A stretch of DNA of 64,000 nt from Candidatus Omnitrophota bacterium (GCA_022703055.1 JAKLEP010000002.1:96480-160479), one strand, 5' to 3'; numbered from the stretch's first letter, positions 36,139 through 55,466 are shown. A program made the numbers and translations. The notes: generated by a model not told the origin, from the sequence alone.

Positions 36139-36170
36139 GTCTCTCTAATTTACCAAAAAGAGAGAATAAC

Positions 36171-36602: not shown

Positions 36603-36628
36603 GAATTCCCGAATAGTTCAATTGGTTC

Positions 36629-38464: not shown

Positions 38465-38495
38465 AAAAAAGCCTCCTGACAAAAATAGATGCATT

Positions 38496-39731: not shown

Positions 39732-41461
39732 TTCGTATTATGACCTATCGCCTGATAAACTGGTTTTGGAAACTCAATGCGAACAGGTTGACGGTAAATC
39801 GGGTGCGTTAATAACAACTCACCTTTATTGAGTCTCGTTAAATTTGATTTAACATCTTGTGAAATAAACCTATAAGTCGGGTCGGCGAGCTCCGATGAAT
39901 CACTGCGACCGATCACTTTCGTTGAACAGTTTCCTACAACCTGACCATGTACTTCACTCATAAACTGCTCTGCGGATATTAATACAACTCCAAGTGATCG
40001 TCCTCTTGCCGCTATATCCAAAACATAATCAAGGATAGACGATTCGCCTTCGCCTTTGCGGGCAGGAGCATATTTATTTAACTCATCAACAAAAATGAGA
40101 ACCTTCTTCGGCAATTCACTGCGCTCATCAACTGTTGCTTCAGCATACATGCCATAAACTTCTTTGATGATATGACCAAAAACCAAAGAGCGTTCTTCAT
40201 CTTGTAGTTTTGCAATATCCACGACCATTGTTTGGCCGCCTTGAATTTTTCTTACTTCTTCTCCAAGATTTGCGGCTCTTTTTTGGCTTCGTTGTTCGAC
40301 AAATATTCCTGACTGTCTATTTTTAACAACGCGCCTTAAAATTCTGATGAAACGCCCAACAGAAGAAGCTGCTACCTGACCATATTTTTGCGGGATACCT
40401 TTATCCATCAAAGGTGCTCCATTTAAAAGCGCATCCCATGTACGTACAGCCTGCCATGCTTTTTCGCCATTCATTACCCCTTGCTGAATTTCACCTATAA
40501 GTGCTCCTAGCGTATCCCACGGATCAGGAACTCTAACCAATAAGTCTAAACCCGGGCCGGGATTAGATCGATCCCCAATAACATCCTCTAAAGAATAAGC
40601 ATAGGTGAAAAACTGATCCGGTGGCTCGCCAAAACAATTTGGCAATCCTGTCGTCTGAGTCGACTTACCCCATGGTAATAGGTATCGAACATTATCAAAA
40701 GCTTTTGGCTTTAAGCCCATTGATTCCCAGAAGGCAATTTCTTCAGGTTTTATACCAGTGCGGGCTTTGTCTATAACAAGTAAGTCATTTTGTTTTACAT
40801 TTAACAAAATAACTCCGATTTCGTTAGCATTTGAGGACTGCAAAATTGACTGAATCAGGAACATTGCATATGATGTTTTTGTAGCAAGTCCGGAAATCCC
40901 TGAAATATTCATATGTGCGCCTTCAGGTCCAAGAATGTACCTTTTATCAAGGAAAACTCGTGCTTTTGTACCATTCGACATCCGAATAATACCTGCAGGT
41001 ATCGTAATTTTTTCCTTATGTTCTTTTTCATATTCGAACATTTTGTCAATCCCCAACGCTACATGTATTCCAGCTTCATCTGCAAATTGGACGGGCGACT
41101 CATTTTGAACAGGCATATAAATTCCCATCGGATATCGTTGATTAACCGCTGGGTCAAAGTTTGCTAAAACATTCACCTCAGCCACATTAGCTCCTTGCCG
41201 AGGGGTTTGAGCCGCACCTTCCGTACTTCCAAAATCACTAGAAATATAATTTGAAAGATGCGTAGGAGCATCGGTAATCTGCTTAATATTTGTTACAAGA
41301 CCGAAGGTACGAGTACCTTGCATCTGATCCGCCTCAATAATGTCAAATGGATTAACAATTTCTTCTGGCGCAAGCCAGAAAGAAAACTTCTCGGATGAGT
41401 TTGGTTCATTTTGTGTTGCTGATGCTTTCCCGATGATATTTTTTTTATTTTCTTCTGCCAT
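39728..41461 (-). CDS. HerA/FtsK-type ATPase (DUF87-like)
   Basis: 577 aa. N-terminal barrel-like region (FSFWLAPEEIVNPFDIIEA...TFGLVTNI), degenerate P-loop GISGLATKTS, Walker B VLIFVDELNKY, and GVVLISAEQ...TKVIGR resembling HerA sensor/arginine-finger regions. Confidence 0.7.
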   Translation of the reverse strand: MAEENKKNIIGKASATQNEPNSSEKFSFWLAPEEIVNPFDIIEADQMQGTRTFGLVTNIKQITDAPTHLSNYISSDFGSTEGAAQTPRQGANVAEVNVLANFDPAVNQRYPMGIYMPVQNESPVQFADEAGIHVALGIDKMFEYEKEHKEKITIPAGIIRMSNGTKARVFLDKRYILGPEGAHMNISGISGLATKTSYAMFLIQSILQSSNANEIGVILLNVKQNDLLVIDKARTGIKPEEIAFWESMGLKPKAFDNVRYLLPWGKSTQTTGLPNCFGEPPDQFFTYAYSLEDVIGDRSNPGPGLDLLVRVPDPWDTLGALIGEIQQGVMNGEKAWQAVRTWDALLNGAPLMDKGIPQKYGQVAASSVGRFIRILRRVVKNRQSGIFVEQRSQKRAANLGEEVRKIQGGQTMVVDIAKLQDEERSLVFGHIIKEVYGMYAEATVDERSELPKKVLIFVDELNKYAPARKGEGESSILDYVLDIAARGRSLGVVLISAEQFMSEVHGQVVGNCSTKVIGRSDSSELADPTYRFISQDVKSNLTRLNKGELLLTHPIYRQPVRIEFPKPVYQAIGHNTK

Positions 41462-41490
41462 GATTAAGCCTCCATTTTTCTTAAAAATTC

Positions 41491-42612
41491 TTAAACCTTA
41501 AATGGCCACTTGAGACCAGCTTTTAATGCCTCCGTAGATATAAAACCATTCTTTACTGCCTGTTCAGCTAGATAAATCGCATAAATATGCGCATGCCATC
41601 TTGAATCTTTACCATGCGGCGTAGCTTGTCGTTCTGCAAGTAATGCAGAAGATAATTCATTAATTATATCTGACGATACCGCCTCCTTACTTGGATTAGG
41701 CAACTCTACTTTAACTACCCCCATCAATGGATAATCCATTTGTTTCTGTTCTCGTAATCGTAGAAACCATATTGCGGCATCGCCTGAACGCGCTGAAAAC
41801 GCACATGTTCGAGAAGAATAAGGCAGGTCGGCCAACAATTCGTAGAGGTTAACGGTTTTACTGCCAAGTTTACCTCCCTGTAATTGGAATGTTGGTTCCT
41901 TGCTAAAAGACTTATTAAGCCAGCAAATATTTGGAATATCCTTGTACATATAAAGATCTTTCCCGGCGTTCCCATCCATTATCAACCAATGATTTTTACC
42001 ACGCTTCAAATCTCGTCCAAGCTCCTCTTCAAGTTTAGCCATTAAATGATGCGCTTTATGCGGAGCTCGAGATCTCGGCTCTTTTCCCGGAGATGTTCTT
42101 TCAGTTTCACCGTCTTCTTCTTGAATATCGCAAAAAGCAAACCGATCGCCTGCTTTTTTCACTAATTCTTCAACCTGATCACCAAAAGAAACAGATTTTT
42201 TATCCATCATCAAAATAATTTTATGACATGACTTTGCAACATTTACGTGTCCGTTATCCTGACGATAAACACACGCCGACCCAATCTGTGAAACATGAAT
42301 TGATGTTCGTCTTTTTCCTTCTACGACATCCCCCAAAAAGAATGTGCGCGCAGAACCATCAATAAAATATCTCAGCATATGTTTTTCTTGACGATAAAAA
42401 GGCGTTAATTGGACGTAAGGGCTCCTGTTAGGAGTCTCAAGAAGTACTTCAAAATAATTATCATCTCCCATACGAAGACGATCAATAACTTCGGCATGAT
42501 CCGGACGCACCATATCTTCCATGGCTTGTCCAGTAGCAGGAAGAACCTTAGCTTCTTTAGTAATTAATTCCAAAGCTGGTTTTAAATCTTTAAAAGGGTT
42601 ATCGTATTTCAC
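41491..42612 (-). CDS. NurA-like nuclease (RNase H-like fold), putative
   Basis: 373 aa. FIDGSAR, KLEEEL, LIMDGNAG and a C-terminal H-rich helix (RWHAHIYAIYLAEQ) occur in the order of the NurA catalytic motifs. The GTG start overlaps the upstream stop (GTGA) and GGAGG lies 6 nt upstream. Confidence 0.55.
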   Translation of the reverse strand: MKYDNPFKDLKPALELITKEAKVLPATGQAMEDMVRPDHAEVIDRLRMGDDNYFEVLLETPNRSPYVQLTPFYRQEKHMLRYFIDGSARTFFLGDVVEGKRRTSIHVSQIGSACVYRQDNGHVNVAKSCHKIILMMDKKSVSFGDQVEELVKKAGDRFAFCDIQEEDGETERTSPGKEPRSRAPHKAHHLMAKLEEELGRDLKRGKNHWLIMDGNAGKDLYMYKDIPNICWLNKSFSKEPTFQLQGGKLGSKTVNLYELLADLPYSSRTCAFSARSGDAAIWFLRLREQKQMDYPLMGVVKVELPNPSKEAVSSDIINELSSALLAERQATPHGKDSRWHAHIYAIYLAEQAVKNGFISTEALKAGLKWPFKV

Positions 42613-45600
42613 ATTTCCTCCAAGGATCGTTTAATTTCTTGTAGATCAGTCAATTCAAAACCCCAAAGTTTCGCAACCTCTTGATCGATTTTTTCTTCAA
42701 TTGACAAAACAGTTTTAGAATCTCCGGAGGCAACCGCAGTATGCGCTGACTTAGAAAGGTCAGCTATTCTTCTATGATGGTTGAGAGACGAAGAAAACAA
42801 GGGGACATTAACGTTATTCAAAATATGGGGCGCAATCTGTGTCCCGACTACATATCGTTTGACAGTTAACCGAATTATCGACGAATTCAAAACGCCGCAT
42901 AAATAATGAGCAGACATTTCATCATCGGTGCTAACAGTTATCACACGATGATCAGGAATAATTATTTTTTCTCCTAGAACTTTGTCTTGTATCGGAGCAA
43001 TAACAGCACAGCGAAAATCAGAGTCAATATATCTCCAACCAACTTTATATTTTGATAGAGTATAGGGGCCTACATTAAACATAGACCAAAATGGATCAGT
43101 TTCTTTATAATAACGTTTAAATGCCGCACGGGCTCTCAGCTGAGTTTCAAACCGTCTTAAATATCCATTAAGACTTGGATATTTTGTTTCCATTAAGGAA
43201 ACAGCGATCCCTTTGCGTTTGGTTGCATCTTGAGTGAATAACACATAAAGTGATGGGGAAGAACTCCAACGTTCCAGATCACGACCCCTTAACAAAGGGA
43301 ACAAAAGTTCATTTTCTACCGCGGCTTGTGTTAAAGCCGCTTTTTTCTTAGCCCCTTCAACTACATTAGAAATTATTATCCTACCATCAGGTCTTTTATC
43401 AGAAATTTCTACCCAAAAAATCGAATTAGCACCGCCAGTATTACATCCTTCGTGTGCGTTATATTCAGATTTCCCTAAAACTTTCTGCATAACTTTAAGT
43501 GCTCGTGGACGAGCAGTAAGCCACGCAGATGTTGGGTCATTTTTATCTATTGGCTCGGCATTCCAAACCTGAAATGTAATTTTTTCCTTTGTAACTTCTT
43601 CATAGGGAGTATCAAAACCAATGGATCCACCTCTGCCAGTAATCCTCTTTTTCCAGCATTGATAAGAAACTGGATATGAAACTTTTCGACCTTTTAAAAA
43701 GACTACGACCGAGGTTCGATTTGTAGCCCCTTCGAAGGGCTTTAATTCAACCATGTCTTCAACGACTAGAGGGGCAAAATGAATTTCATTTGGCAATATG
43801 AATCTTCGGAAACCTTGACCCGCACCCGATGTTTTAAATAAATTTTGAGGCAATACGAAACCAATTTTTCCTTGCATCTCAAGATAACGATCTATTGAAA
43901 CAAATGTCATAAGCATGGCTATATCTTTTTTGCCTTTACCCAAAATTGTATCCATCCCTCCATGAGGAAATAATCCATACTGTTCCCATAATGGCTTTGT
44001 CTGCGTACGATATTCATCAGGTAGACTTTCCCAATTAACCCATGGAGGGTTGCCAACAATATATTGGCATGGGTCAAGAAATAATGGGGCAAAAGAATTC
44101 TTAATAATACGCGCCCAAACCCCATTTAATCCTTGCGCGTGTAGCTCTTTTAGCTGATTCAACAATAGGTTAAGTCCGGATTTAGCTTCCTCCCACTCCT
44201 GTAAGGGTAAAGTAATTGCTTTTTCAACACGATTAATAAAAGATTCGGGCCTAACGTCAGACTCAACACTCTCATCAAGAATATCGGCGAGTATATCCAT
44301 TCGTTCGCGACGCGCAAAAGCGTGTGGTATTTTAAATATACCAACAGAAGTTTTTAATGAATAAACCCCTCCATCAAACAACCCTTCACCTTTTGCAGGC
44401 GTTAAAACTGAATCCGCCTGATATACAGGTATATCTATTTCACTTTTACGTTCTTTGAGTAATTCGCCAAGTGCCAATAAATAATTAGTTCTTGCCGCAA
44501 TTACGGCCAAGGGATTCAAATCAATACCAATAATGTTTTGTAGAATAAGCTTCAGCGTTTCGGCTGGTATTCGTTTCTCTTTATCAGATCGATCACGAAT
44601 ATATTTAATAAGAATGACAAGAAATGTTCCCGACCCACATGAGGGGTCAAGAACCCTCTTTGTCACATCACCTAAATCACGACTTCCCAAAGTTTGTCTG
44701 ATTAAACGTTCTGCAAGCCAATCTGGGGTATAGTATTCACCCAAATCATGCCGTATTTCTCGGGGCAATAAATAATGGTAAAGCTTCTTTAAAAGGTCGC
44801 GGGCATTTTCCGGGGCAAGTTCAAGCGTACCCGGGTCATAATCTGCAAGGCGTTTTATAAGATCACTTATACCATCCTCAATTTCATTATCCCAAGCGGG
44901 TATATACCAACCAAAAAAATCCCCTTCAAGAAAATTGCGAATACCATACTCTCGAAAAAGACCGCCTCTCTCAAGATCAGCCATAGCTAATCTTAAATCA
45001 TCACCTTTTTTTAGAGCAAAAGCAGACAATGGCGCGGACTTCCCTCCAGCAAAACGTGCCGTGGCAAGCGATGCGACAAGTTTGATCAATAATGCGTAAT
45101 ATGTATGCAGGACAAAGAAAACTTTTGCGGCATCTAAATGTTTGATTTGTTCTTTTGTCCATAATGAACTTACGAATGAGCGAAATTCCGCTTTTGATTC
45201 AATCTTATCTGCCCATGCCTTATAATCAGTAGCTTCGCTGAAAAATAATCGCCACTGATCAAATAATTTACCGACTAATGGATGTTTTGTGCTATGCAAA
45301 GCCGTATAAAGAGCACGAATAGCGCGTTGGGCACGAATATTTTTTGGGCCAAAGTCGTTAACTAAATTCTCTGGAACTAATGCCGCGCCTTTTGAAAGGG
45401 AGAATAACAGCCTCAAGAATAGTATGGTCGATGACGAATTAACAGCTAAAGGATCGTCAACCGACCAGCCTTCACCGACTCTACGTACAAAGATAAAATA
45501 ATGACCATCAGTAGCTACACCAGCCAGTCTTTGCGCTTCACGCTTTTCGCGTTTTGCGACATCATCAATATAGTCCTTGACTTGTTTAATAACAGCTTGA

Positions 45601-45872
45601 TTTGCAGAAGTAGCATTTGAACTTTTTAAAATACCCGGACGCTTATATTCAAGTATTAAGCGATTATAAACGGAATCAACCCTGCCTCGAGCCACAGAGA
45701 ACTCATCGCGAGGAATAATAGTAAGACCTACCGATAACCCTGCATCTTCAAGTATTCTTGCGGCCTCTCTACGAAAATCCGCTTCATTAGTAGATTGCCG
45801 AGCCACTGAAGATATTTGCCGAGCGATATTAGGCGCGAGTTCAATCGTTATTTTCTCAATATCTTTTTCCAT
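42609..45872 (-). CDS. MmeI-like type IIL/IIG restriction-modification enzyme (PD-ExK nuclease + N6-adenine MTase + TRD)
   Basis: N-terminal D-x9-E-x-K (GRVDSVYNRLILEYKRPG), then MTase motifs EYYTPDW, VLDPSCGSGTFLV and VGNPPW, and a C-terminal region of about 450 aa. The ORF-track start at 45929 is a TTG; the ATG at 45872 gives 1087 aa. Confidence 0.8.
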   Translation of the reverse strand: MEKDIEKITIELAPNIARQISSVARQSTNEADFRREAARILEDAGLSVGLTIIPRDEFSVARGRVDSVYNRLILEYKRPGILKSSNATSANQAVIKQVKDYIDDVAKREKREAQRLAGVATDGHYFIFVRRVGEGWSVDDPLAVNSSSTILFLRLLFSLSKGAALVPENLVNDFGPKNIRAQRAIRALYTALHSTKHPLVGKLFDQWRLFFSEATDYKAWADKIESKAEFRSFVSSLWTKEQIKHLDAAKVFFVLHTYYALLIKLVASLATARFAGGKSAPLSAFALKKGDDLRLAMADLERGGLFREYGIRNFLEGDFFGWYIPAWDNEIEDGISDLIKRLADYDPGTLELAPENARDLLKKLYHYLLPREIRHDLGEYYTPDWLAERLIRQTLGSRDLGDVTKRVLDPSCGSGTFLVILIKYIRDRSDKEKRIPAETLKLILQNIIGIDLNPLAVIAARTNYLLALGELLKERKSEIDIPVYQADSVLTPAKGEGLFDGGVYSLKTSVGIFKIPHAFARRERMDILADILDESVESDVRPESFINRVEKAITLPLQEWEEAKSGLNLLLNQLKELHAQGLNGVWARIIKNSFAPLFLDPCQYIVGNPPWVNWESLPDEYRTQTKPLWEQYGLFPHGGMDTILGKGKKDIAMLMTFVSIDRYLEMQGKIGFVLPQNLFKTSGAGQGFRRFILPNEIHFAPLVVEDMVELKPFEGATNRTSVVVFLKGRKVSYPVSYQCWKKRITGRGGSIGFDTPYEEVTKEKITFQVWNAEPIDKNDPTSAWLTARPRALKVMQKVLGKSEYNAHEGCNTGGANSIFWVEISDKRPDGRIIISNVVEGAKKKAALTQAAVENELLFPLLRGRDLERWSSSPSLYVLFTQDATKRKGIAVSLMETKYPSLNGYLRRFETQLRARAAFKRYYKETDPFWSMFNVGPYTLSKYKVGWRYIDSDFRCAVIAPIQDKVLGEKIIIPDHRVITVSTDDEMSAHYLCGVLNSSIIRLTVKRYVVGTQIAPHILNNVNVPLFSSSLNHHRRIADLSKSAHTAVASGDSKTVLSIEEKIDQEVAKLWGFELTDLQEIKRSLEEM

Positions 45873-45906
45873 TATTTGCTTCCATTGCTTCCTGATAGTC
45901 AAAACG

Positions 45907-46503
45907 TCAGGGAGTTCGTAAAGTCTCAAAGAAATCTTTTATTGGCTTCAATGATGCATTATTGTGGTCCCAATAGCCAGCCTGTGCCGCTTCATTAATC
46001 CTTTTTCCGGGGTCGTCATTAGCACTCAAAAAAGCATATGTTTTTGCCTTATCTTTCTTATGATCAGGAATAATCACGCCTTTGGTTGCCAAACAGCCCA
46101 TAAAAGAATTGATGCACTGATTTTTATCACAATTATTTTGTTCGACAATACGCATCAACAATGTTTCCAACATTCCATTGTCTCGATTATTAGGCAAAAT
46201 GAAGAAGCTGGTTTTTATCGAGAGGCTTAATGAGGAGAGAATATTTTCTGCGCTTCGCTTTGCATCATCAAAACTATCATCGGCGTCTCGAACAATTGCA
46301 AAACATTTAACATTGTCAACAAAACCTGCCTGCTGGATAACTGCAGATACGTTATCATTGTTTGGCTTACCATTTACCCCAAAGAATTGAATATCATTAA
46401 ACGCCCATTCCTTACAAAATTTAGCCAAAACTCCAGCGTCATCTTTACCCTCAACAACAACAAGAATTGGTTTGGAAATAGCCTGATCTTGCACAGCCAT
46501 CAT
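45907..46503 (-). CDS. Small Toprim-like protein (DUF4276/DUF3226/DUF4435-like), partner of the upstream ATPase
   Basis: 198 aa. ILVVVEGKDDAGVL (Toprim glutamate motif) and AIVRDADD (DxD). Its start overlaps the ATPase stop (ATGA). Confidence 0.6.
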   Translation of the reverse strand: MMAVQDQAISKPILVVVEGKDDAGVLAKFCKEWAFNDIQFFGVNGKPNNDNVSAVIQQAGFVDNVKCFAIVRDADDSFDDAKRSAENILSSLSLSIKTSFFILPNNRDNGMLETLLMRIVEQNNCDKNQCINSFMGCLATKGVIIPDHKKDKAKTYAFLSANDDPGKRINEAAQAGYWDHNNASLKPIKDFFETLRTP

Positions 46504-47573
46504 CTGATCTCCAAATCATTCTCTATCGCGGCTTTGATACTTCCTTCATTATAGGCGATGCTCTGGATACCTTGTTTTGTTTCTTCAAAACGAAAAACAC
46601 CGAGGTCAAATTTTTGCTTTCCCGAAAAAGCTTCTACGGCAGAGCGAACACAATCCAAACTATGGGTAGTAGCAATAACTTGAACATCATACTGCTTCGC
46701 AATTTTCTCAATAACCTGCCAAATAGGCAATAATGCTTTCCAGTGCAATCCGACTTCAATCTCATCAACAAGTAAAACGCCTCCGGGAACACTGAGCATG
46801 CTAACTATTAAGCGAAGCACTTTTATCATACCCAAACCAGATAAAGCTAGCGGGATCAAACGGTCTTTTCCAATATCGATTAAAATCGTAATATCACCAC
46901 CTCGCGGAGCAATTTTAATGTCTTTAATTCGTGGTTCCAAAATTTTCAAGGCCCCAACAACTTCGGGATCTTTTTTTGTTTCCAATAACCGCCCTAAGCG
47001 ATCCGCATCTTCTTTTGGGTTATACGATACGTTATGCAAGAATATTGCCTCAAAGAAAGCTGGCCGAACGTTATCTCCGAACGAAATCTGTTTCTTCTCT
47101 GGAAATAAAGTTAGTTTATTGGCGAAATTGTCTTTCTTTGAGTTTTCATAAACAAATTCGCAAAGGACCCTAGACTGATCTCCCCGCAAAGCCATTCTTC
47201 CTTCTGAGTCACTTGTCGACATAAGGATGGTTGAAGGGGCGCTGGATTTTATTGTAACCTTATTCCAATTATCTTCATTTTCAGCCCGTAAGATTATTTC
47301 TTTATCAGTGTTAAAATTATGGAAAAAGCTATTCAAAGGCGATTCAGTTGCCCCTGCTCCTGACAGATTAATACTAATACCTGGCATACCACGGAAAGTA
47401 TCCGTGCGTAACATGAGTTCTCCAGAAGTCCCTGCCATTATGAACATGGTTTCAAGAAATGCTGTTTTCCCAACATTGTTTTGTCCAGTTATCAGATTAA
47501 CTTGTTTTAATCCATCAACTGTTATTTTTTCGAAGCACCTGAAATTTTGAACTTCGACTTTTGAATAAATCAT
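46500..47573 (-). CDS. ABC-type (AAA_15/AAA_21-like) ATPase
   Basis: 357 aa. Walker A GQNNVGKT, signature-like LSGLGMIKVL, Walker B LLVDEIEVGLH and H-loop ATTHS. Confidence 0.85.
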   Translation of the reverse strand: MIYSKVEVQNFRCFEKITVDGLKQVNLITGQNNVGKTAFLETMFIMAGTSGELMLRTDTFRGMPGISINLSGAGATESPLNSFFHNFNTDKEIILRAENEDNWNKVTIKSSAPSTILMSTSDSEGRMALRGDQSRVLCEFVYENSKKDNFANKLTLFPEKKQISFGDNVRPAFFEAIFLHNVSYNPKEDADRLGRLLETKKDPEVVGALKILEPRIKDIKIAPRGGDITILIDIGKDRLIPLALSGLGMIKVLRLIVSMLSVPGGVLLVDEIEVGLHWKALLPIWQVIEKIAKQYDVQVIATTHSLDCVRSAVEAFSGKQKFDLGVFRFEETKQGIQSIAYNEGSIKAAIENDLEIR

Positions 47574-47614
47574 TTTATTCCTCCTATTGAAGCTCTCGAT
47601 GAGAGCTTTTTTAT

Positions 47615-47791
47615 TTAGCCATTACTCCGGTTTTTTATAAATTCCTCCAAATCTTCTGGTTTAATTTTCCACTGTCCTATTTTTACAGCTTTGATCTCCT
47701 TGCGGGCGATTAGATCACGCACCCATTCTTCTGTGATGTCTAGTTTTTTGGCTACTTCGGGAACGGTTAGATATTTGCGAAGGTCGTCCAT
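47615..47791 (-). CDS. Excisionase-family (MerR/AlpA-like) HTH protein, 58 aa (not in ORF track)
   Basis: Hand translation: MDDLRKYLTVPEVAKKLDITEEWVRDLIARKEIKAVKIGQWKIKPEDLEEFIKNRSNG. It matches the excisionase-family DNA-binding domain pattern (..VA..L.i....v..l.....i.a.kiG..w.i....l..f). Confidence 0.7.
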   Translation of the reverse strand: MDDLRKYLTVPEVAKKLDITEEWVRDLIARKEIKAVKIGQWKIKPEDLEEFIKNRSNG

Positions 47792-47947
47792 GTAAAATAC
47801 CTCTGCTTTGTGTTTAGATGAGTATATTTGAGTCCTTCCCAGTCCTTATAAATCCATATTTTATACTCATCCAACCGCCAAGTCAAACGGAATTATGTTT
47901 TATAACAAAGATGTAAAGCAGTACTGAGAATTGGTCTTCCGTATCTC

Positions 47948-48150
47948 GTCACAAAAACAATATGCTTTTTGTGACAGCGTTCCCGTGCCTTTACTGACAC
48001 ACTGACACGGGTGATGTCAGTGGATGTCACTGAAAAATCCCTAATTTTCTCCAAAAACACATAGTTTTGAAGGGGAATTTGCCTTATTTGGGGCATTTTC
48101 ACCGACCTGCTGACACTGACACGAGTTTTTGAAACTGATATCACTGAAAG
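47948..48150. repeat. Repeat cluster: 10-bp inverted repeat plus two CTGACAC-CTGACAC...TCACTGAAA modules
   Basis: Inverted repeat GTCACAAAAA (47948-47957) / TTTTTGTGAC (47966-47975). CTGACAC occurs at 47994, 48002, 48110 and 48116. TCACTGAAA occurs at 48027 and 48141. Confidence 0.5.
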
Positions 48151-48328
48151 ACCGCGCCTCGCCCGACCCTCGGCAAACCCCCTCCCGAAGGACCCATCGC
48201 TTAAAGGATTCCGGAGTCACGCGCAGTCGCAGGGTCACCTCACGCCAACCAGGTAAATCGAAACTCACATCAACCCAGAAGCCCGGCTTCCATTTCTTCT
48301 TTTTGCGTTTACGCCAATACCATCCCAT
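48041..48328 (-). CDS. Hypothetical basic protein (doubtful)
   Basis: GGAG lies 5 nt before the ATG. The N-terminus is MGWYWRKRKKKKWKPGFW. The ORF overlaps the repeat cluster, so coding status is uncertain. Confidence 0.25.
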   Translation of the reverse strand: MGWYWRKRKKKKWKPGFWVDVSFDLPGWREVTLRLRVTPESFKRWVLREGVCRGSGEARSFSDISFKNSCQCQQVGENAPNKANSPSKLCVFGEN

Positions 48329-48460
48329 AACGCTCCTCTAAAAAATGCGTGCGGAGGAGGGCAAGAGGTACCCTCTGCCAGACGCGTTTATCTGGCAAAA
48401 CTTTCACGATGGAAGAGTTAACAAGAACATCGATCCGGTTTCTCCGCATTAAACTTTCTT

Positions 48461-49144
48461 TTATACAGTGACCGCCTCCGATTGCTCTGCTGGTTTTACC
48501 TGTTCCGGCTTATACTTCTTCATCAGGCTTTTTATCTCCTCATCCAGATCGAAGTGTGACACCCAGTGATCCCTGCTTCGAATATTTTCTTCAACGTCCG
48601 CTATTGTTGGACGGCGCAACTCAGCAATGCCTTTGTCTATCTCAGCATGAAAGACCTTGTGCGCGTCTGATCCCAACCCGGGGCTAAACTCAGGAAATTC
48701 TTCAAGATGCCGTCTCGTGGTCTCCGGATGCCCGTAAATAGCGAACGCTAACGCGAACAGCCTGCCTTTAGCCCGCCATAGCTCAAGAATAGCTTTGTCT
48801 TTGTCTCTATTCATCGAGTTTCTGTCTGCGATGATCCGTTTCATTTCTTCATCTCGCTTGGCGACAAGCGATTCTTCGAGCTTCGCTTTCAGCTTCGCGA
48901 GACTTTCACTGATAACATCGAAGTTGATATCGCACTCGCCCAAAGCTAAGTCCGCCTGCTTTATGGCGTCGGGAATAACCCGCTCACCGCACATGACACG
49001 GCTTCTGATTTCTTTCACTTTCTCTTTTGCTTCGACTTTCTCTTGCTCACAAAGCTTCTGCTTTTCTTCAAGAGCTACGATCTGTTCGGCGATCTCTTCG
49101 GGTGTGCTTTTACCCCTTAACACGTTTAAAAAATTGATCTTCAT
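48461..49144 (-). CDS. Coiled-coil hypothetical protein
   Basis: 227 aa, E/K-rich heptad-like sequence, no recognised motif. Confidence 0.5.
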   Translation of the reverse strand: MKINFLNVLRGKSTPEEIAEQIVALEEKQKLCEQEKVEAKEKVKEIRSRVMCGERVIPDAIKQADLALGECDINFDVISESLAKLKAKLEESLVAKRDEEMKRIIADRNSMNRDKDKAILELWRAKGRLFALAFAIYGHPETTRRHLEEFPEFSPGLGSDAHKVFHAEIDKGIAELRRPTIADVEENIRSRDHWVSHFDLDEEIKSLMKKYKPEQVKPAEQSEAVTV

Positions 49145-49232
49145 GGTCTTGTCCTTTCTGTTTGTTTACATTGATATTTTTATCCACCCAATAAATCCGA
49201 TAATGTCAATCCACGGCACACCTCCTTTTTTC

Positions 49233-49514
49233 GTGAGCAACGTGAGGATACTTTCTTGCTTCTTCTACAGGCTCTTTATGATTACTTTCGTGTGTGAATT
49301 TCCCTTTATCCTGTCTTGTTAAAATTAAGAAAATTACCCTCACAATCCTCACAACTTCACCTAACACCTTGTAGATACAGAGATTGACCATGTGAGCAGA
49401 GCCGTGAGCAAGGCGTGAGGAACACTTGTTTCCTCACAGCTCAAAACGGCCGAGGGTCATCGTCCTGCTCACAAAAACCGTCTCTGCTCACATCTTGCTC
49501 ACGCCCATCCTCAC
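49233..49514. repeat. Cluster of 12-13 GTGAG(C/G)A heptamers in both orientations
   Basis: Forward copies at 49233, 49242, 49392, 49404 and 49415. Reverse copies (TGCTCAC/TCCTCAC) at 49337, 49346, 49431, 49466, 49485, 49496 and 49508. Includes the hairpin GTGAGGAA-N7-TTCCTCAC (49415-49437). Confidence 0.6.
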
Positions 49515-51825
49515 ACCCGTAATAATCATCATCGAGCACGGCGCCCGGCATCTTCTTAAGGATAAAAACCCGCCTTCCTGTACCGGCTTCACGTTTATTT
49601 TTCCGCGCGATATCGATCCCCACATTACGCATCACCGGAGCGATACGCGTTAATTCCGTTGATAGCCACTTGGCGTTGGCCGGAATGCCTTTTTCGTCTT
49701 TGTCCGGATTGATAAGCGAAAGAAGCTCGGCCGCTGAACCGTGCCACTCGCCGTTATTCTCGAGCACAATATTGATCAGTTTCTTGGCAAGGGCGCTGTC
49801 TTCGGCAGTGTCCTGCCATTTACGGTCAACTGACTCCTGATACTTCTTGAAAAATTCATCCCGGGTAAACCCCAGAGCCTCGGCCAATGCCGCGCCCCAC
49901 TGGGCAAAGTCCGCCATACGGAATTTCTCATGGCCTTTGACCTGATGGACAATAGCCATCGCGTTTGAAAGGGCAGTAAAGAACCCGCCAAGGATAAACG
50001 GTAATGACGCGTTCCACTGTTCGGTCATTTCTTTTTCCGAGCGTGTTTCTTTGAGCAAAGGGATATCGAAAATAATCGAGCGATCTAAAAGGTCCGGCCT
50101 CCACGCCGAAGCGCCGATACCGTTTAAGACAAAACACCGGCGATACGCCCGAATAAACTCATCGTCATTGGTATAAAGCGAGCGTTTCATGTCGCCTTCA
50201 CCGGTCACAGCTCGGCATAAAAAGTCGCTAAACCACTCCTGAATCTTGGAAATATTGTCAAAAGTATTTATCCAGTGTTTGTCCGCTGTCATCTGAGCGT
50301 GTTCCAAATCTTTCGGCGTTGAAATGAGCATGACCTTTGACGGGTCCACGAGCCCCTTGACCCGTCGGCTGTTATTTGATTTACCCGTGCCTTGCTCGCC
50401 GTTTTGATTAGGGATAACGTGCGGGATATTGGGAATAAAAAATGATGCTACCGAGATCAAGAAAAGACAATGGTCGTCTTTATGAATATTGCAGAATTTC
50501 AGGAAATCTTTGGGATTGCCGCCGGTAACCGGAATGACTTGCTCAGCCTGATGCTGATAACGTCTGAATATCGGAGGAAGATAACAGACCACCCAGCCGT
50601 CTTTCGTGATCCTGACACCACGCCAATCAAGCGTGGTAAGGTCATAATAAAAGTCTCCGTTATAAACGCCTACCCGGTTGAAAAGCTCTATCTGAGGCGC
50701 GTCCTGACAGCGGGCTTCGATCTGGATGCGCGCTTGTTTTAAGGCTTCGTTATTCGGAGGCACGCCGAACTTGTGGCGATATCTTTTCGCGCCCCAGTTA
50801 CGGAAATGCGCGCTTGCTGTCGGGCAAACCTCAACATGATCACCGAATGGCAGGACCACAAAAGGACTGCCTTGCTGGTCACGAAAATAATGTTTTATCT
50901 TTTCCTCATATTCCCGGGTGATTACTTCGCCTTGGGTTGGCTTGCGCTTGAGGGCATCTTCGGATGAGTCGCCGAAAGCTTCCGCGCAATCACTGACCGC
51001 TTTTTCGATAACAGACTCGCCGTATGTCTTGCCGTCGCCAAAGTGTCGCTCGTCCCACTTTGGGCGCATAAGACCGGAATGCCGGAAAATCTTGTCCATG
51101 AGCGCCGGATTTCTACCTGTCCAGAAGGCGAGTTTATTGCAGAAAGCAAGGTCTGCCTCGGATTGAGAAGGATAGGCGTCCTGCCATTTACCTTCATAAA
51201 GTTTGAAGAACACTTCGCTGTCATTGCTTTTTCTGATTCGGTTAAGAAGCGTTCGCTCTTTTCTGTGTTCTTCTTCAAACCGCTCTGATTCTTCAAATAG
51301 CTTGGCGAGTTTGTCTTTTCTTTCTTCAATGGAATTCTTACAGCCGGACACGATGTTGCCGGTAATGGTAAAGAAACGATTGCCCGAATACATCTCAACG
51401 CCCAAAGCGCTGAATTTTCTGTCCTTGGGAAGCGCTCCTTTACAGATGATATGAATACCCGTCCCGGTCGGTGAGAATTCGGTGTAACTATCGAGTAGCT
51501 GGATTATCTTTTTCGCGTTCGAAGCGATCACACCATCCTTAACGCATCTGTCTATATCAATGCCGATATAAGGCGGGGTAATCGCGAATCCTAGGGCGTC
51601 AAGATTGAGCGCTTCGGCCTTGGCGATAACTTCATCAAGCGGCCGCCATGTTACCGGATCATTCGACTTGGCATAGCCGCCGGTCGCGACATTGATCGGC
51701 TCTTTCTTGGGCTTTTTGTCTTTCTGGGGTGTGAATTTGAATCCCACGCCGATAGGCGGGGCTTTAAGTTCTGGCGGGATATTGTCCGCTTGCCATTTCT
51801 TCGCTATTCTTTCCTCGGTTTTCAT
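49441..51825 (-). CDS. Bifunctional prim-pol primase / SF3 (D5/P4-type) helicase replication protein
   Basis: 794 aa. Prim-pol motifs GIDIDRCV, GTGIHIICKG and VEMYSGNRFFTITGN, then the P-loop GEQGTGKS in a D5/P4-like C-terminal NTPase domain. Confidence 0.9.
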   Translation of the reverse strand: MKTEERIAKKWQADNIPPELKAPPIGVGFKFTPQKDKKPKKEPINVATGGYAKSNDPVTWRPLDEVIAKAEALNLDALGFAITPPYIGIDIDRCVKDGVIASNAKKIIQLLDSYTEFSPTGTGIHIICKGALPKDRKFSALGVEMYSGNRFFTITGNIVSGCKNSIEERKDKLAKLFEESERFEEEHRKERTLLNRIRKSNDSEVFFKLYEGKWQDAYPSQSEADLAFCNKLAFWTGRNPALMDKIFRHSGLMRPKWDERHFGDGKTYGESVIEKAVSDCAEAFGDSSEDALKRKPTQGEVITREYEEKIKHYFRDQQGSPFVVLPFGDHVEVCPTASAHFRNWGAKRYRHKFGVPPNNEALKQARIQIEARCQDAPQIELFNRVGVYNGDFYYDLTTLDWRGVRITKDGWVVCYLPPIFRRYQHQAEQVIPVTGGNPKDFLKFCNIHKDDHCLFLISVASFFIPNIPHVIPNQNGEQGTGKSNNSRRVKGLVDPSKVMLISTPKDLEHAQMTADKHWINTFDNISKIQEWFSDFLCRAVTGEGDMKRSLYTNDDEFIRAYRRCFVLNGIGASAWRPDLLDRSIIFDIPLLKETRSEKEMTEQWNASLPFILGGFFTALSNAMAIVHQVKGHEKFRMADFAQWGAALAEALGFTRDEFFKKYQESVDRKWQDTAEDSALAKKLINIVLENNGEWHGSAAELLSLINPDKDEKGIPANAKWLSTELTRIAPVMRNVGIDIARKNKREAGTGRRVFILKKMPGAVLDDDYYGCEDGREQDVSRDGFCEQDDDPRPF

Positions 51826-51827
51826 CT

Positions 51828-52058
51828 TTATACTCCGTTTTGAAATATGAAATCTTTAACCCTTCTGTAGCACTGAAATAACTGCTCCTCTTTGGAATTA
51901 CTGAAAAACTCGTCCGCCAGCTCCTTGGTCTTTTCGCAGTCATCAAAAAGCACCCGTTTTTGCCTTCCGGCGCCGGCAATGCCTTTCATGGCACAGCCCT
52001 TTGAGACCAGATAGGCGGCCAGATATATGTTTCCAGCTTCAAAATATTGTTCTTTCAT
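51828..52058 (-). CDS. Small phage/plasmid-type protein (DUF5659-like?)
   Basis: 76 aa, ending 2 nt before the primase start. The family assignment is from memory of the pattern LAAYLVSKG....G and is weak. Confidence 0.4.
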   Translation of the reverse strand: MKEQYFEAGNIYLAAYLVSKGCAMKGIAGAGRQKRVLFDDCEKTKELADEFFSNSKEEQLFQCYRRVKDFIFQNGV

Positions 52059-52083
52059 CTTGTTTCCTTTGTTTCCTCAAGGC

Positions 52084-52727
52084 GTATATACGACGAAATC
52101 CTCAAAAGTGTCCCACCCATACATACAGATTTTCCTGCCAAAATGTCGCGCTCTAATTCGTACATACGTAAAAATTCTTCAAAGTGTCTCAGCCCTCACC
52201 GTGTACATACAGATTTTTTCGCCGATTTGTCCCCCCTTTAGCGGGTATATACGTAAAAAAATCTCAAAATGTTGCAGGCTTCCTGATAGTACATACAACT
52301 TTTTTTACCAAAGTGTTTCACCAAACCTTCAAATATTCCTTCCACAGCATACATTCCCCGTTTTCCATAAAAGTGTCGGAAGTTTTTTACCCTAAGCATG
52401 TATTCAGGATTTTTCGTCAAAGTGTCGGATTTTTCTTCCTAAGCGTATATTCCGGAAATCCCTCCAAAGTGTCGGAATTTTTTTCTCCCTATGCGTACAT
52501 ACCGGAAAATTCCGCGAACTGTCGGAATTATTTTCATTTCACCTGCAACACTTTAAGAAAAAACATCGTATATACGCTCTAAGGCGGGACACTTTTCGAA
52601 AAAATCCGGTATATACGCCTTAGGGGAAAGATTTTTCCGACACTTTCGGGAAAAAAGCGGAATACATGTATGGGAGGACTTTTTTTAAAGACCCGCGCGA
52701 CATTTCGGAAAAAAAAGTTGTATGTAC
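52084..52727. repeat. Iteron-like array: about 14 degenerate units of roughly 35-60 nt (many 41-44 nt) with a bipartite GTAYATAC ... AAAGTGTC core, switching orientation near 52550 (putative origin)
   Basis: Cores occur at 52084, 52119, 52160, 52203, 52245, 52289, 52348, 52397, 52444 and 52494, each followed about 11 nt later by AAAGTGTC-like boxes. Inverted copies (GACACTTT ... GTATATAC) occur at 52568, 52609, 52662 and 52720. Confidence 0.8.
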
Positions 52728-52732
52728 GAGAT

Positions 52733-52951
52733 ATGGAAGAGAAAAAGACACGTTTAAAAGTAGAAGTCGAATATATCGACTGCCCGGACGGGGACGATCG
52801 GCTGGCTAAGACCGCCAAGCTCCTCTCCACGGGCGTTTATGAATACCTTAAAAAGAAAGGGTCGCTCAAGATTGACCCCCAGCGCCAAGAAAAGGTCCGG
52901 GAAGCCATGGAAAAAGCCCGGGAAATCATCAATCGTAATATTGAGGAATAA
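52733..52951 (+). CDS. Small acidic/basic protein upstream of the integrase (possible regulator or directionality factor)
   Basis: 72 aa from the ATG at 52733 (MEEKKTRLKVEVEYIDCPDGDDRLAKTAKLL...). The longer ORF-track start at 52670 lies inside the repeat array. Confidence 0.45.
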   Translation: MEEKKTRLKVEVEYIDCPDGDDRLAKTAKLLSTGVYEYLKKKGSLKIDPQRQEKVREAMEKAREIINRNIEE

Positions 52952-53001
52952 TGATTGATTCAGCTTGGCTTGTCGCGGGGTTGTGATAGGGTTGGGTCGC
53001 T

Positions 53002-54654
53002 ATGGCAGAGACAAATAAACGATGTGGATTCGTGATCAGGGTCAGTACGGACAAACAAGCCCGGAACCCCGAAGGATCACTCACAAACCAGCTCCAACGC
53101 TTACAGGCGCATGTTGAATACAAAAATACCGCCTGCGACGAGCATTGGGTTGAGGCTGGCCGCTATATTCTTAAAGGCGTATCCGGCAAGGACTCGATCC
53201 GAAGCCCGGAATTCGCCCAGCTATTCGCTGACATGGAATCCGGCAAGGTCAATACAGTCATCTGCACCGCGCTTGACCGCATAAGCCGCTCGGTCAAAGA
53301 CTTTCTGAATTTCTTTGAGATCCTCACCAAGTACAACGTGGAATTCGTCTGCTTAAAACAGAACTACGACACCACCTCATCACAAGGGAAGCTCTTCATA
53401 ACAATCATGATGGCGCTGGCAGAATTCGAGCGCACGCAAACTTCCGAGCGAAACCGGGACGCCACTATCGCCCGGGCAGAGAGGGGCTTATGGAACGGCG
53501 GGCATTTGCTGGGCTACAACTTAAACCCGGCGAAAAAAGGATATCTTGAGATCAATGACGAAGAAAAAGCGATCGTGCAATTCGCCTTTAAGAAGTATCT
53601 GGAATGCGGCTCAGTCATCGAGACCGCCCGGACGCTCAATGATCACGGCTTTCGGACAAAAAGCTACACCTCCCGACGGAATAAAATAAAACCACCTCAA
53701 AAATTCGGCAAGTCATCGACAAAGCAGATGCTCGTCAATCTTGCCTACATTGGCAAAAAGGAAATCAATAAACGCTGGATATGGTCAGATCAGGACAAAC
53801 TGCCGGATTACAAAAAATACCGGGTTGTTCCGGCTGTCTGGGACCCGATCATCGATGAGGACACGTTCTACAAAGCCCAGCATCTTATGAAACGAAACTG
53901 GTCGACCCGGCATAATGGTGTAACGCCAGTCAAACATTTGTACCTGTTAAATGGTGAATTATTGTTCTGCGAAAAATGCGGTAAGCCAATGGAAGGAACC
54001 TGCGGGACCGGACGGCAAGGCATGAAATATTATTATTACCACTGCAAGCACTGCAAATTCAAGATGCCTGCCGGTGAGGTTGAAGGCGTGGTCATCGATA
54101 AGCTCAAAGAACTCGCCACGAACGATGAAGCCGTGGCAATCATGGTCGAGGCCGCGAATAAAGAACTTCACAAAGAGATGCCCCAACTAAAAGGACAGCG
54201 TGACACACTCCAAAAGCGACTCGATGATGTCAAGAAAAGCGCGGACGGCATCATGGAAAAGTGGACAGCCATGGCCACGGATGACAACAGCGTGTTCTTG
54301 CGTGAGAAGCTGGACGAGCTGGCCAAGCAACGAAAAGACATCGAATCCGGACTTTCTGCCTTGGATATTCAAATAAGCGATATCCAGCGGGAGGCGATCA
54401 ATAAGGATGACGTCCTTGAGGCCCTTGGCAAGTTTTCCGAGCTCTTTGAGACGCTCGCCCCATACCTGCGCAAGGAAATCATCCGCCATGTCATGAAGAA
54501 GGCCGTATTGAGCCCCACGAGCATAAAAATAGCCCTGCTCGGGAAACATCCCAAAACAGGGCTATTCGATACAGCGGCGCCTGACGGCGCAATCCGCTGT
54601 CAGACGTCAATATGGCTCCCCCTCGAGGACTCGAACCTCGGACCTGGTGGTTAA
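53002..54654 (+). CDS. Large serine recombinase (integrase), integrated-state form
   Basis: Catalytic-Ser motif CGFVIRVSTDKQ, a resolvase domain, a recombinase domain, a zinc ribbon (CEKCGKPMEGTCG...YYYHCKHCKF) and a coiled coil. The last 13 codons (WLPLEDSNLGPGG) are read from the antisense strand of tRNA-Asn. Confidence 0.93.
   Translation: MAETNKRCGFVIRVSTDKQARNPEGSLTNQLQRLQAHVEYKNTACDEHWVEAGRYILKGVSGKDSIRSPEFAQLFADMESGKVNTVICTALDRISRSVKDFLNFFEILTKYNVEFVCLKQNYDTTSSQGKLFITIMMALAEFERTQTSERNRDATIARAERGLWNGGHLLGYNLNPAKKGYLEINDEEKAIVQFAFKKYLECGSVIETARTLNDHGFRTKSYTSRRNKIKPPQKFGKSSTKQMLVNLAYIGKKEINKRWIWSDQDKLPDYKKYRVVPAVWDPIIDEDTFYKAQHLMKRNWSTRHNGVTPVKHLYLLNGELLFCEKCGKPMEGTCGTGRQGMKYYYYHCKHCKFKMPAGEVEGVVIDKLKELATNDEAVAIMVEAANKELHKEMPQLKGQRDTLQKRLDDVKKSADGIMEKWTAMATDDNSVFLREKLDELAKQRKDIESGLSALDIQISDIQREAINKDDVLEALGKFSELFETLAPYLRKEIIRHVMKKAVLSPTSIKIALLGKHPKTGLFDTAAPDGAIRCQTSIWLPLEDSNLGPGG
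54613..54621. repeat. Right att core (attR), TGGCTCCCC
   Basis: Identical to 36171-36179. It forms the 3' terminal GGGGAGCCA of tRNA-Asn. Confidence 0.6.
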
Positions 54655-54688
54655 CAGCCACTCGCTCTACCGACTGAGCTAAGGGGGA
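54613..54688 (-). tRNA. tRNA-Asn (anticodon GTT), CCA encoded
   Basis: Minus strand: TCCCCCT-TA-GCTC-AGTCGGTA-GAGC-G-AGTGG-CTGTTAA-CCACC-AGGTC-CGAGG-TTCGAGT-CCTCG-AGGGGGA-GCCA. This folds as a cloverleaf with a perfect 7-bp acceptor stem, a GTT anticodon and a TTCGAGT T-loop. Confidence 0.93.
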
Positions 54689-54725
54689 ATTAGATATTAT
54701 TGCAAAAATACTGTTTTTATTCTAC

Positions 54726-55466
54726 TTAAAATCTATCCTTAGTCAAGAAATTTAATCCTTTTAAGGTAAGATTCTTATCTATCTTATCAATGGAACTACA
54801 AAATTTGCTTATCAATCCAATATTACCGCCGGTTGCCACAACAATAGGTTGTTTCTTAAACTGTTTTTTTAATTTTATAACCACGCCGTCGCAAAGGCAA
54901 CCGAATCCATTGAGCATGCCGCTAAGAATGCTATTTTTGGTGTCTTTACCGATAAGTTCTCTGGGCGCGGCTAGTTTCGCTTCGGGTAGAAGCGCGCATT
55001 TTGTTGCCAGTGCCTCCAAAGAAATCTTTAAACCCGGAATGATCATTCCTCCGACGTATTCAGCTCTTGCAGAAACCACATCAAAGGTTATAGCTGTACC
55101 AAAATCTACAATTATTAAAGGTGCGCCGAAGATCTTTAATCCTGCAAAGGCATTCACTAGCCTATCTTGACCTACCTGTTTTGGATTCCGATATAAATTC
55201 TTGACCGGAACTTTAATATCTTCTCCGACGACTAACGGCATGATATGCAACTGCTTAATTACCTTAGCTTTCAATGCTCGCGTAGCCTTCGGAACCACAC
55301 TGCAAATCACAATACTATTTATCGCTGCCTTATTTAATTTTAAATCCCTTCCGGAGACAATCTTGCCCGTAGGAATATCCCAAGACCTAATGAGCCTATT
55401 GGCTTTGAATATTCCAAAGCTTGTATTCGTATTCCCGATATCAATTACTAGATTCTTCATAGGCAA
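54726..55466 (-). CDS. coaX: Type III pantothenate kinase
   Basis: 246 aa. N-terminal LVIDIGNTNT and DFGTAITFD motifs of the CoaX/ASKHA fold. Confidence 0.9.
   Translation of the reverse strand: MPMKNLVIDIGNTNTSFGIFKANRLIRSWDIPTGKIVSGRDLKLNKAAINSIVICSVVPKATRALKAKVIKQLHIMPLVVGEDIKVPVKNLYRNPKQVGQDRLVNAFAGLKIFGAPLIIVDFGTAITFDVVSARAEYVGGMIIPGLKISLEALATKCALLPEAKLAAPRELIGKDTKNSILSGMLNGFGCLCDGVVIKLKKQFKKQPIVVATGGNIGLISKFCSSIDKIDKNLTLKGLNFLTKDRF

Follow-up and report, generated by a model that had tools for sequence, protein, structure and literature searches.

This report concerns a block of bipartite repeats in a 64,000-nucleotide stretch of a Candidatus Omnitrophota genome (GCA_022703055.1, JAKLEP010000002.1:96480-160479; hereafter the window) and the relation of this block to a family of sigma factors carried by mobile elements. 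The block occupies 52074-52737 and is part of an integrative defence island of ~18.5 kb (window ~36.1-54.7 kb). It separates two divergent operons. The leftward replication operon begins with the gene of a 76-amino-acid (aa) DUF5659 protein (51828..52058, minus strand; Pfam PF18903), whose stop codon lies 2 nt before the ATG of a 794-aa primase-polymerase (prim-pol) of the NrS-1/pRN1 type (49441..51825, minus strand; Pfam PF22763 and a PHROG primase match). The rightward integrase operon begins with the gene of a 72-aa protein (52733..52951, plus strand) and continues with a 550-aa large serine recombinase (53002..54654, plus strand; Pfam Resolvase, Recombinase and Zn_ribbon_recom). The 3' end of the recombinase gene overlaps a tRNA-Asn (54613..54688, minus strand; ARAGORN and Rfam), which forms the right boundary of the island.

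The repeat block

Direct reading of the sequence and repeat finding both gave exactly 14 units of ~42 bp each. Ten promoter-like units form the left arm (52074..52526, minus strand) and point towards the DUF5659/prim-pol operon, and four form the right arm (52544..52737, plus strand) and point towards the 72-aa/integrase operon. The left arm was delimited by matrix scores of 29-45 bits together with the aligned units, and the right arm by scores of 33-52 bits together with the sequence itself. The G of the GACA core falls at 52112, 52147, 52188, 52231, 52273, 52317, 52377, 52426, 52473 and 52523 in the left arm, and the cores of the right arm lie at 52547, 52588, 52639 and 52699. By repeat finding, the outermost left-arm box begins at 52084 and the right-arm block extends over 52547-52727. 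The arms stand back to back, with the innermost GACA cores 24 bp apart (52523..52547, no strand assigned), and a back-to-back junction of 23-25 bp also occurs in the related loci L003-L006, L031 and L032. Start-to-start spacings are 35, 41, 43, 42, 44, 60, 49, 47 and 50 nt in the left arm and 41, 51 and 60 nt in the right. A first-pass annotation, made from the sequence of the window, had described about 14 bipartite repeats in 650 bp at this place, ten in one orientation and four in the other, spaced roughly 35-60 nt apart with many at 41-44 nt, and all of this was confirmed.

A weight matrix trained on 83 units from related loci found exactly 14 sites in the 64-kb window, at 29-52 bits; the rest of the window never reached 8 bits, and neither did 402 kb of shuffled sequence. 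The motif GTAYATWC occurs 17 times in the window (4.4 +/- 2.1 expected), 14 of them inside the block, and the block also holds seven of the window's eight exact AAAGTGTC sites. A relaxed unit core has 14 occurrences in the window, every one in the array. Tandem Repeats Finder detects the youngest copies, with periods of 47 and 50. Spacings between units follow a ladder of ~10 bp (41/50/61/71), with a resultant of 0.66 at a period of 9.75-10. The GC content of 52001-53000 is 0.42, that of the host ~0.40. An Rfam scan of 47000-55000 returned the tRNA-Asn alone at E <= 1, and the array matched none of the Rfam models.

Anatomy of the unit

Read towards the flanking operon, a unit consists of t(G/C)C-GACAC-TTT, n3, (G)AAAAA, n2-C-n, G(T/A)AT(A/G)TAC-GC, n-T-T/A and GGGG. 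Eight positions are invariant in all 14 window units (A1, C2, A3, T6, G21, A23, T24 and A27). The offset from box to box is rigid: among the 87 related units whose second box could be scored, 83 have it at 22 nt. GTATATAC and AAAGTGTC are 13 nt apart, not ~11 nt as given in the first-pass annotation. That annotation had also described the unit as a near-palindromic box, a spacer and a second box; the bipartite form holds, but the unit is longer (~42 bp), and the palindrome belongs to one variant among several. Since GAATATAC, GAATACAT and GTATGTAC occur as second boxes besides GTATATAC, the palindrome of the latter is incidental. Two boxes at a fixed spacing, as found here, are the form expected of a promoter of the sigma-70 family, of the extracytoplasmic function (ECF)-like kind.

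In the proximal unit of the left arm, the second box ends 25 nt before the DUF5659 ATG at 52058. In the last right-arm unit (52699-52735) it ends 5 nt before the ATG of the 72-aa gene at 52733, so that a leaderless transcript is predicted for this unit. A transcription start 7 nt past TATGTA would coincide with the A of that ATG, which would again give a leaderless mRNA; the same ATG is not preceded by a good Shine-Dalgarno sequence.

Some arrays elsewhere are of mixed composition. In those of L001, L002, L015 and L034 (e.g. L001 5246-5620), GTAATCACCTATG and GTGTTCATAG second boxes are mixed with the GTATATAC type while the first box is unchanged; in L015, the orientation of the units alternates and the small gene before the primase is absent. 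A likeness of the type-B units to T7-type promoters was set aside as coincidence, as no single-subunit polymerase gene is present.

Units in related loci

Related loci were collected through the primase (37 loci) and through close homologues (5), and 9 more array loci were found with an exact two-box DNA pattern that is independent of any protein. In most of the collected loci the unit is found upstream of the replication operon and nowhere else in the locus, and across the set the units point at the adjacent operon. Reverse units, in one to four copies, are confined to loci with a divergent integrase operon (11 of 15 by the strict pattern); none of the 21 loci that lack such an operon has one. 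Where a locus has just one unit, 47-49 nt separate the GACA core from the start codon, and this interval contains GGAGG, the purine run of the unit, as the Shine-Dalgarno sequence. In arrays, 19-30 nt separate the second box of the proximal unit from the DUF5659 start; L001, L002 and L029, whose proximal copy is degenerate, are exceptions. Units that lie upstream of genes, point at them and keep a constant distance from the start codon behave as promoters would, and from this distance and the purine run we take the unit to be a promoter plus leader cassette and the arrays to be tandem duplications of it.

Copy number changes fast, by gain and loss of whole units. The arrays of the window and of L038, whose primases are 92% identical, are ~95% identical and differ by two whole-unit indels. 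L004 and L006 are related array islands with 16 units each and belong to the same genome bin (JBAYES01, Omnitrophota), so that one host can carry more than one such island.

The first-pass annotation had allowed that the repeats might prove to be a family dispersed through the host genome. In addition to the scan of the window, public collections were scanned with an exact pattern; all true units (at least 33 bits) lay beside DUF5659/primase or the sigma gene, chance matches remained below 23 bits, and the family is not dispersed.

The same annotation had considered the block the likely replication origin of the element. As an iteron origin, the units would be bound by the prim-pol/helicase, or by DUF5659 acting as a specificity subunit, the DNA would be melted, and synthesis would proceed in both directions outward from the orientation switch. 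Many phased direct repeats do adjoin a primase-helicase gene here, and the DUF5659 gene is translationally coupled to the primase gene. On the complementary strand the first box becomes AAAGTGTC. This includes a GTG, which serves the prim-pols of NrS-1 and pRN1 as template site (PMC8718748), and primers started there would run outward in both arms; a GTG within a 9-bp box is, however, likely by chance and is weak evidence.

The distribution of the units argues against an origin. Six loci whose primase is 56-59% identical over residues 1-794 (L014, L016-L019 and L021) have no unit within 6 kb on either side, and in this array-less primase clade an HTH_17 gene takes the place of DUF5659. Units persist before a helicase-only protein (L022-L024) and before a prim-pol fused to a different, D5-type helicase (L081 and L104), so that three replicase architectures accompany arrays. 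Reverse units vanish along with the divergent operon, and the block contains neither an A/T-rich unwinding region nor a DnaA box. In Staphylococcus aureus pathogenicity islands (SaPI), in staphylococcal cassette chromosome mec (SCCmec) and in pRN1, moreover, the helicase or prim-pol gene has the origin on its downstream side and the operon promoter on its upstream side (PMC7581432, PMC4234260), and a better candidate, conserved in all primase loci, exists at such a downstream place in the island (47948-48200, described below). We consider it quite improbable that the array is an origin. The primase was likewise judged an unlikely binder of the units, contrary to the first-pass proposal, given the six array-less primase loci and the arrays that accompany other replicases. 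The 72-aa protein, proposed as the other binder, was rejected because arrays occur without its gene (L001, L002, L011-L013, L029 and L034).

Link to a mobile-element sigma factor

In seven sister islands (L008, L010, L025, L039, L040, L107 and L139), a 190-aa gene occupies the place that the array has in the window, and the next features downstream of it are one canonical unit, within ~10 nt, and DUF5659. The 190-aa protein is an ECF-like sigma factor of the sigma-70 family (NCBIfam sigma70-ECF TIGR02937, 53.7 bits at a cut-off of 42.9; Pfam Sigma70_r2 and r4_2). A phage-like locus, L078, encodes a sigma factor 41% identical to it and has one unit before an operon of small open reading frames (ORFs) and the sigma gene, and one after the sigma stop codon, each 47-48 nt before a start codon. 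A further unit in L078, read by eye and below the matrix cut-off, points back at the integrase.

A search of IMG/VR with the sigma factor alone returned ten viral contigs. In six of them the sigma operon is preceded, and the sigma gene immediately followed, by units of 30-44 bits; three have weaker or variant units, and L178 has only a variant, read by eye. The sigma family has > 400 members, some of them on megabase-size contigs. Five more family members, found on long contigs (L183-L187; from Margulisiibacteriota, a 4.5-Mb genome and others), belong without exception to integrated elements of one layout, in which a reverse-strand serine integrase and small ORFs are followed by a forward sigma gene, a forward unit right after the sigma stop codon, an ORF of ~90-110 aa and a replicase. 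In L184-L187, a reverse unit is placed so as to drive the reverse-strand integrase side. The replicases of these five elements are SNF2 plus PrimPol/D5, a DnaG-type primase-helicase or an unknown 810-aa protein. The ORF of ~90-110 aa was compared with DUF5659 as a possible homologue, and the idea was dropped (hhalign probability 1%).

Units and sigma genes not only co-occur in these relatives but also covary. In the most divergent sigma factors, the helices of region 4.2 are altered (TLFDE(I/V)LRI, TVRREIDRI and TVYKEVARI), and the first boxes read GGCAC, GCCAT and GGGCACAAA instead of GACAC. The window itself has no sigma gene, but it is tied to the sigma-encoding elements through its integrase operon: the window integrase is 56-64% identical to those of L184 and L185 and the 72-aa protein 39-47% identical, the latter travels only with this integrase clade, L184 and L185 included, and in these two loci a single unit stands before a 72-aa/integrase operon homologous to that of the window.

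Copy number is inversely related to the presence of the sigma gene. All seven sigma-encoding DUF5659 loci have exactly one unit before DUF5659, and the sigma-less loci have 2-16 units, except L022-L024 with 0-1 variant units. With one unit in the sigma-encoding loci against 2-16 in the sigma-less ones, the comparison suggests that sigma-less islands amplified the promoter to capture a sigma factor made elsewhere.

Two structures near the sigma gene were also seen. In every sigma-encoding element, the sigma start codon lies at the 3' foot of a conserved hairpin, GAGAC(A/G)CC, 11-19 nt, GGTGTCTC, (A)ATG (L008 5100-5136; L183 7965-8003; L184 and L185 7950-8003; L186 and L187 2955-3003). It buries the ribosome-binding site, and RNA fold z-scores were -3.5 to -5.3 in the three cases tested. 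The hairpin could serve as a translation control, an attenuator or a palindromic operator for sigma. In L008 (4400-5130) and L025 (4650-5130), the space between the integrase-side unit and the sigma gene is occupied by approximately six modules of ~110-120 bp, each ending in a long GC-rich hairpin of the GAGACACC/GGTGTCTC type with a T run, as in a terminator. These modules might be tandem small-RNA genes or serial terminators; Tandem Repeats Finder called nothing on those of L008.

The block as a probable promoter array

The comparison of loci supplied the anatomy of the unit, its rules of orientation and position, its association with the sigma gene and a copy number that is low where this gene is present and high where it is absent; from these we infer that transcription starts in the units, that this sigma factor reads them and that it arrives in trans. 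That the units are promoters of a mobile-element sigma factor is, on this comparison, probable. We hold with moderate confidence that the block as a whole would be a divergent, tandemly amplified promoter array for an element-borne ECF-like sigma factor, controlling excision and replication of a sigma-less island. That the factor is supplied in trans by another element is a more tentative proposal, which we would not put at even chances. The first-pass annotation had offered, besides the origin, a regulatory hub in which divergent transcription units start, and this suggestion gained support from the orientation of the units, their distance from start codons and the sigma gene link in relatives.

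In the mechanism that we propose, each ~42-bp unit would be a copy of one promoter cassette, with a -35-like box, (C)CGACACTTT, a -10-like box, (C)nG(T/A)AT(A/G)TAC, at a rigid distance from it, and a purine run, which single-copy relatives have as their Shine-Dalgarno sequence. RNA polymerase carrying the small ECF-like sigma factor (~190 aa) would read the cassette. The ten tandem copies of the left arm would drive the DUF5659/prim-pol operon and hence replication, and the four copies of the right arm the 72-aa/serine-integrase operon and hence recombination. Both operons would be silent until the sigma factor arrived in trans from a related element, a phage or the host, and the tandem copies would raise the sensitivity to a scarce factor. 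Silence in the absence of such a factor is expected because the island has no such sigma gene and the region no canonical sigma-70 promoter; a scan of 51500-53300 for TTGACA, 16-18 nt and TATAAT found no site.

A related idea is that the array acts as both sensor and sink, detecting the sigma factor of a phage or other element, firing the excision and replication operons and drawing sigma-bound polymerase off phage promoters. The 14 sites per copy, multiplied by replication of the island, would compete with the phage promoters for the sigma operon and for replication, and the array itself would add to defence, beside the restriction and abortive-infection cargo. We regard this extension as speculative and rather unlikely.

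The units might instead be read by a chromosomal sigma factor, either housekeeping or a stress-induced one of the ECF type, such that the island answers a host signal. This possibility draws on the promoter evidence given above, the island has no sigma gene of its own, 64 kb of the host genome are visible, and some of the > 400 family members lie on megabase-size contigs. Against this, wherever the surroundings of a family sigma gene were read, they were those of a mobile element, with a serine integrase and a replicase alongside. Unit-like promoters are absent from the host genes of the window; these genes and the HTH_17 gene of the island use canonical TTGACA-N16/17-TATAAT promoters. The HTH_17 promoter (TTGACT at 47886-47881, 17 nt, TAAAAT at 47863-47858) shows TTGACA/TATAAT to be in use in this host and sets the array units apart as another class of promoter. 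Reading by a host sigma factor is, in our judgement, improbable, and an element-borne factor is preferred.

Several observations weigh against a sigma-specific promoter array. No sigma homologue was found in the window and no sigma domain in the tested island ORFs, with the reservation that only 64 kb of the host genome are visible. The -10-like box lacks the T at -7 of sigma-70 promoters and is not canonical, and the likeness of the unit to ECF promoters relies on what we take to be their consensus (AAC ... CGT). The sigma-encoding DUF5659 loci form one clade, so that the inverse copy-number relation may go back to one event in their evolution. With spacings of 41-60 bp, ten tandem promoters cannot all be occupied simultaneously, so that the benefit of multiplicity is hypothetical. 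Lastly, the > 20 conserved positions per unit and the ~10-bp spacing ladder would equally suit a DNA-binding protein that coats the array, and DUF5659, the near-constant companion of the units, could be that protein.

The last point leads to an operator array, in which the 76-aa DUF5659 protein, as auto-repressor or activator, would bind the units over the promoter present in each, forming a cooperative switch or a titration sink. Such binding would not prevent the units from being promoters as well. In nearly all array loci, whichever of the three replicase architectures they have, the array is followed first by DUF5659, and its replacement by HTH_17 in the array-less primase clade points in the same direction, as do the spacing ladder and the conserved basic beta-hairpin GxGRQKR in the AlphaFold2 model of the protein (predicted local distance difference test, pLDDT, 90). 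A more distant locus, L030, has four or five ACCAGTA direct repeats with a period of ~12 bp and two perfect TATAAT boxes at 905-965, upstream of a DUF5659-like gene of 30% identity; these repeats hint that DUF5659-family proteins may bind short direct repeats. The association is not strict, however. The nine units of L015 stand without any DUF5659 gene, in L007 an XRE-type gene takes its place beside the units, and the unit occurs without DUF5659 in L078, L173-L187 and other sigma elements. Unit subtype is independent of DUF5659 similarity, and a search of the PDB with the DUF5659 model found no fold match, so that the protein resembles no known DNA-binding fold. Binding by DUF5659 is thus a minority explanation that we think unlikely, although less so than a reading by a host sigma factor.

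Two opposed clusters of phased repeats around a divergent promoter region also resemble a centromere-like partition site for the excised circle, comparable to the parC or tubC arrays that flank a promoter. Neither ParA, ParM or TubZ motor genes nor domains of a centromere-binding protein were found in the island or its relatives, and the units are tied to start codons and to the sigma gene; a partition function is extremely improbable.

Comparison with known systems

ECF sigma regulons in which the sigma gene lies beside its target promoters are well known, as with sigma-W, sigma-M and sigma-X of B. subtilis and sigma-E of E. coli. The present family resembles them in its two-domain sigma factor of ~190 aa and in a two-part promoter, whose first box is (A/G)AC and whose second, at rigid spacing, is (C)GTA-like. 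The sigma gene is flanked by presumed promoters, which in L078 and L173-L175 also lie upstream of the sigma's own operon. It differs from these regulons in that the sigma gene is on mobile elements beside a serine integrase and a replicase, with no anti-sigma recognised, and in that the window has 14 tandem promoter copies and no sigma gene.

P4 late promoters are activated by P2 Ogr or P4 delta, and phage-inducible chromosomal islands (PICI) and the islands known as PLE are induced by a helper phage. The window island is similar to these helper-activated satellites, being an integrase and primase-helicase island with defence cargo and no structural genes, whose excision and replication operons apparently need a foreign factor. 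Unlike in these satellites, the factor would be a sigma subunit and the response element a tandem array, and helper dependence is merely suggested by the missing sigma gene. The island has an integrase and its own replicon and no virion genes, as a phage satellite would; no packaging signal and no packaging or capsid-redirection genes were seen in it, although no dedicated search was made.

Plasmid and P4 replication offers the iterons of P1, F and RK2 and the ori and crr of P4, bound by the alpha protein. Many phased direct repeats beside an initiator gene are common to these and the window, as are two repeat regions ~4 kb apart that flank the primase gene. Unlike iterons, the array does not co-occur with the initiator, and its units have twice the length and include a cassette of promoter and ribosome site.

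In pRN1, the genes of a small protein and a prim-pol/helicase (orf56/orf904) form one operon with its promoter upstream and the origin in a structured downstream element (Berkner et al. 2014, PMC4234260). The small gene and prim-pol operon of the window have the same layout, and the N-terminus of the primase matches the pRN1 and NrS-1 prim-pol folds. The window element differs in being bacterial and integrative, in having DUF5659 rather than a CopG-type repressor as its small protein, and in a promoter that is amplified 10 + 4 times and would belong to a special sigma class. Neither ECF regulons, nor the pRN1 operon, nor helper-activated satellites have 10 + 4 tandem sigma-specific promoters on a sigma-less element.

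SaPI/PICI and SCCmec origins consist of short iterons that are bound by the C-terminal domain of the helicase (PMC7581432). The array is unlike them: it is upstream of the helicase operon, independent of the helicase, made of 42-bp units and oriented with transcription. The likeness lies in the second element of the island (47948-48200), with short inverted and direct sites in two clusters, an A/T-richer spacer, a position downstream of the helicase operon and conservation with the helicase.

In the literature searched we found nothing on DUF5659, on the promoters of this sigma family or on such arrays, and nothing relevant on sigma-dependent satellite induction or tandem-promoter decoys. If the promoter reading is right, the ECF-like sigma factor and its compact promoter/ribosome-site cassette would constitute a regulatory module that is undescribed in the literature searched and that acts as a master switch between serine-integrase and replicase operons. 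It occurs in integrated elements and IMG/VR viral contigs of several little-studied phyla, Omnitrophota and Margulisiibacteriota among them. The defence island of the window would have kept the promoter, multiplied in this family up to 16-fold, and lost the sigma factor, which would give a testable route for sensing another mobile element via a polymerase subunit instead of an anti-repressor. The likely origin of the prim-pol island family would move to the other conserved element, a matter of relevance for replicons and vectors for uncultured bacteria, and the cassette (~42 bp) and sigma factor (190 aa) could serve as a small orthogonal expression pair.

The island and its other genes

The island lies between a host efflux operon (31484-35713) and the tRNA-Asn (54613-54688), at window ~36100-54688, with host coaX and uvrB beyond the tRNA. 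Its core is ~48% GC, compared with 40% in the host. A search for a displaced tRNA fragment at the left end gave nothing > 11 nt, and the left end is therefore not fixed. Leftwards from the array follow DUF5659, the prim-pol, small ORFs with the HTH_17 gene, the defence cargo and, from ~35.7 kb leftwards, the host efflux genes. The cargo comprises GmrSD (36629-38494), a methylase (38496-39731), a type IIG restriction-modification enzyme (42609-45929) and a DUF3226 with AAA_15 (45907-47573), besides two further proteins of no assigned function. The HTH_17 gene (47615..47886 with its promoter, minus strand; 58 aa; Pfam HTH_17, E 2e-15) is excisionase-like.

The prim-pol has a helix-bundle domain, a P-loop region and, at the C-terminus, a domain of winged-helix topology, and its relatives are found in Omnitrophota and neighbouring candidate phyla. 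In Foldseek, the N-terminus matches NrS-1 N300 at E 1e-15, and also pRN1. Residues 678-758 have a helix-strand-helix-helix-hairpin topology (pLDDT ~69-85), and this C-terminal winged-helix-topology region is nearly invariant across the family. Membership of the superfamily 3 helicases was considered and could not be established, the helicase core being poorly modelled (pLDDT < 50 at residues 465-603). The 72-aa protein gave no match in family searches and is a possible candidate for a recombination directionality factor.

A second conserved element

Downstream of the primase operon lies a non-coding element, 47948..48200 (minus strand), whose DNA sequence is conserved in essentially all primase loci, with or without an array. 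Two 37-nt iteron clusters, at 47999-48035 and 48113-48149, contain inverted CACTGACA/TGTCAGTG sites of the TGACA(C/T) type and enclose an A/T-richer spacer of ~77 bp; a GC-rich invariant block and a perfect 10-bp palindrome (47948-47975) are also present. The TGTC/GACA columns are invariant across 13 aligned loci. By analogy with SaPI, SCCmec and pRN1, and because it co-occurs with the primase, this element is likely a better candidate for the origin than the array; it may also have an attachment site (att)-like role.

Covariation between the first box of the array and the short sites of the second element was considered and is contradicted by the comparison of the window with L031, in which the array boxes are shared and the second-element sites differ (TGACA versus GGACA/CGACA). 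The array and the second element therefore probably have different readers.

A 95-aa ORF at 48041-48328 has protein-level relatives in several loci, and its 3' half overlaps the nucleotide-conserved second element; an 83-aa ORF at 47893-48144 is probably a mere translation of the element. In L014, L016, L017 and L021, the first ~43 nt of the second element are repeated several kb upstream.

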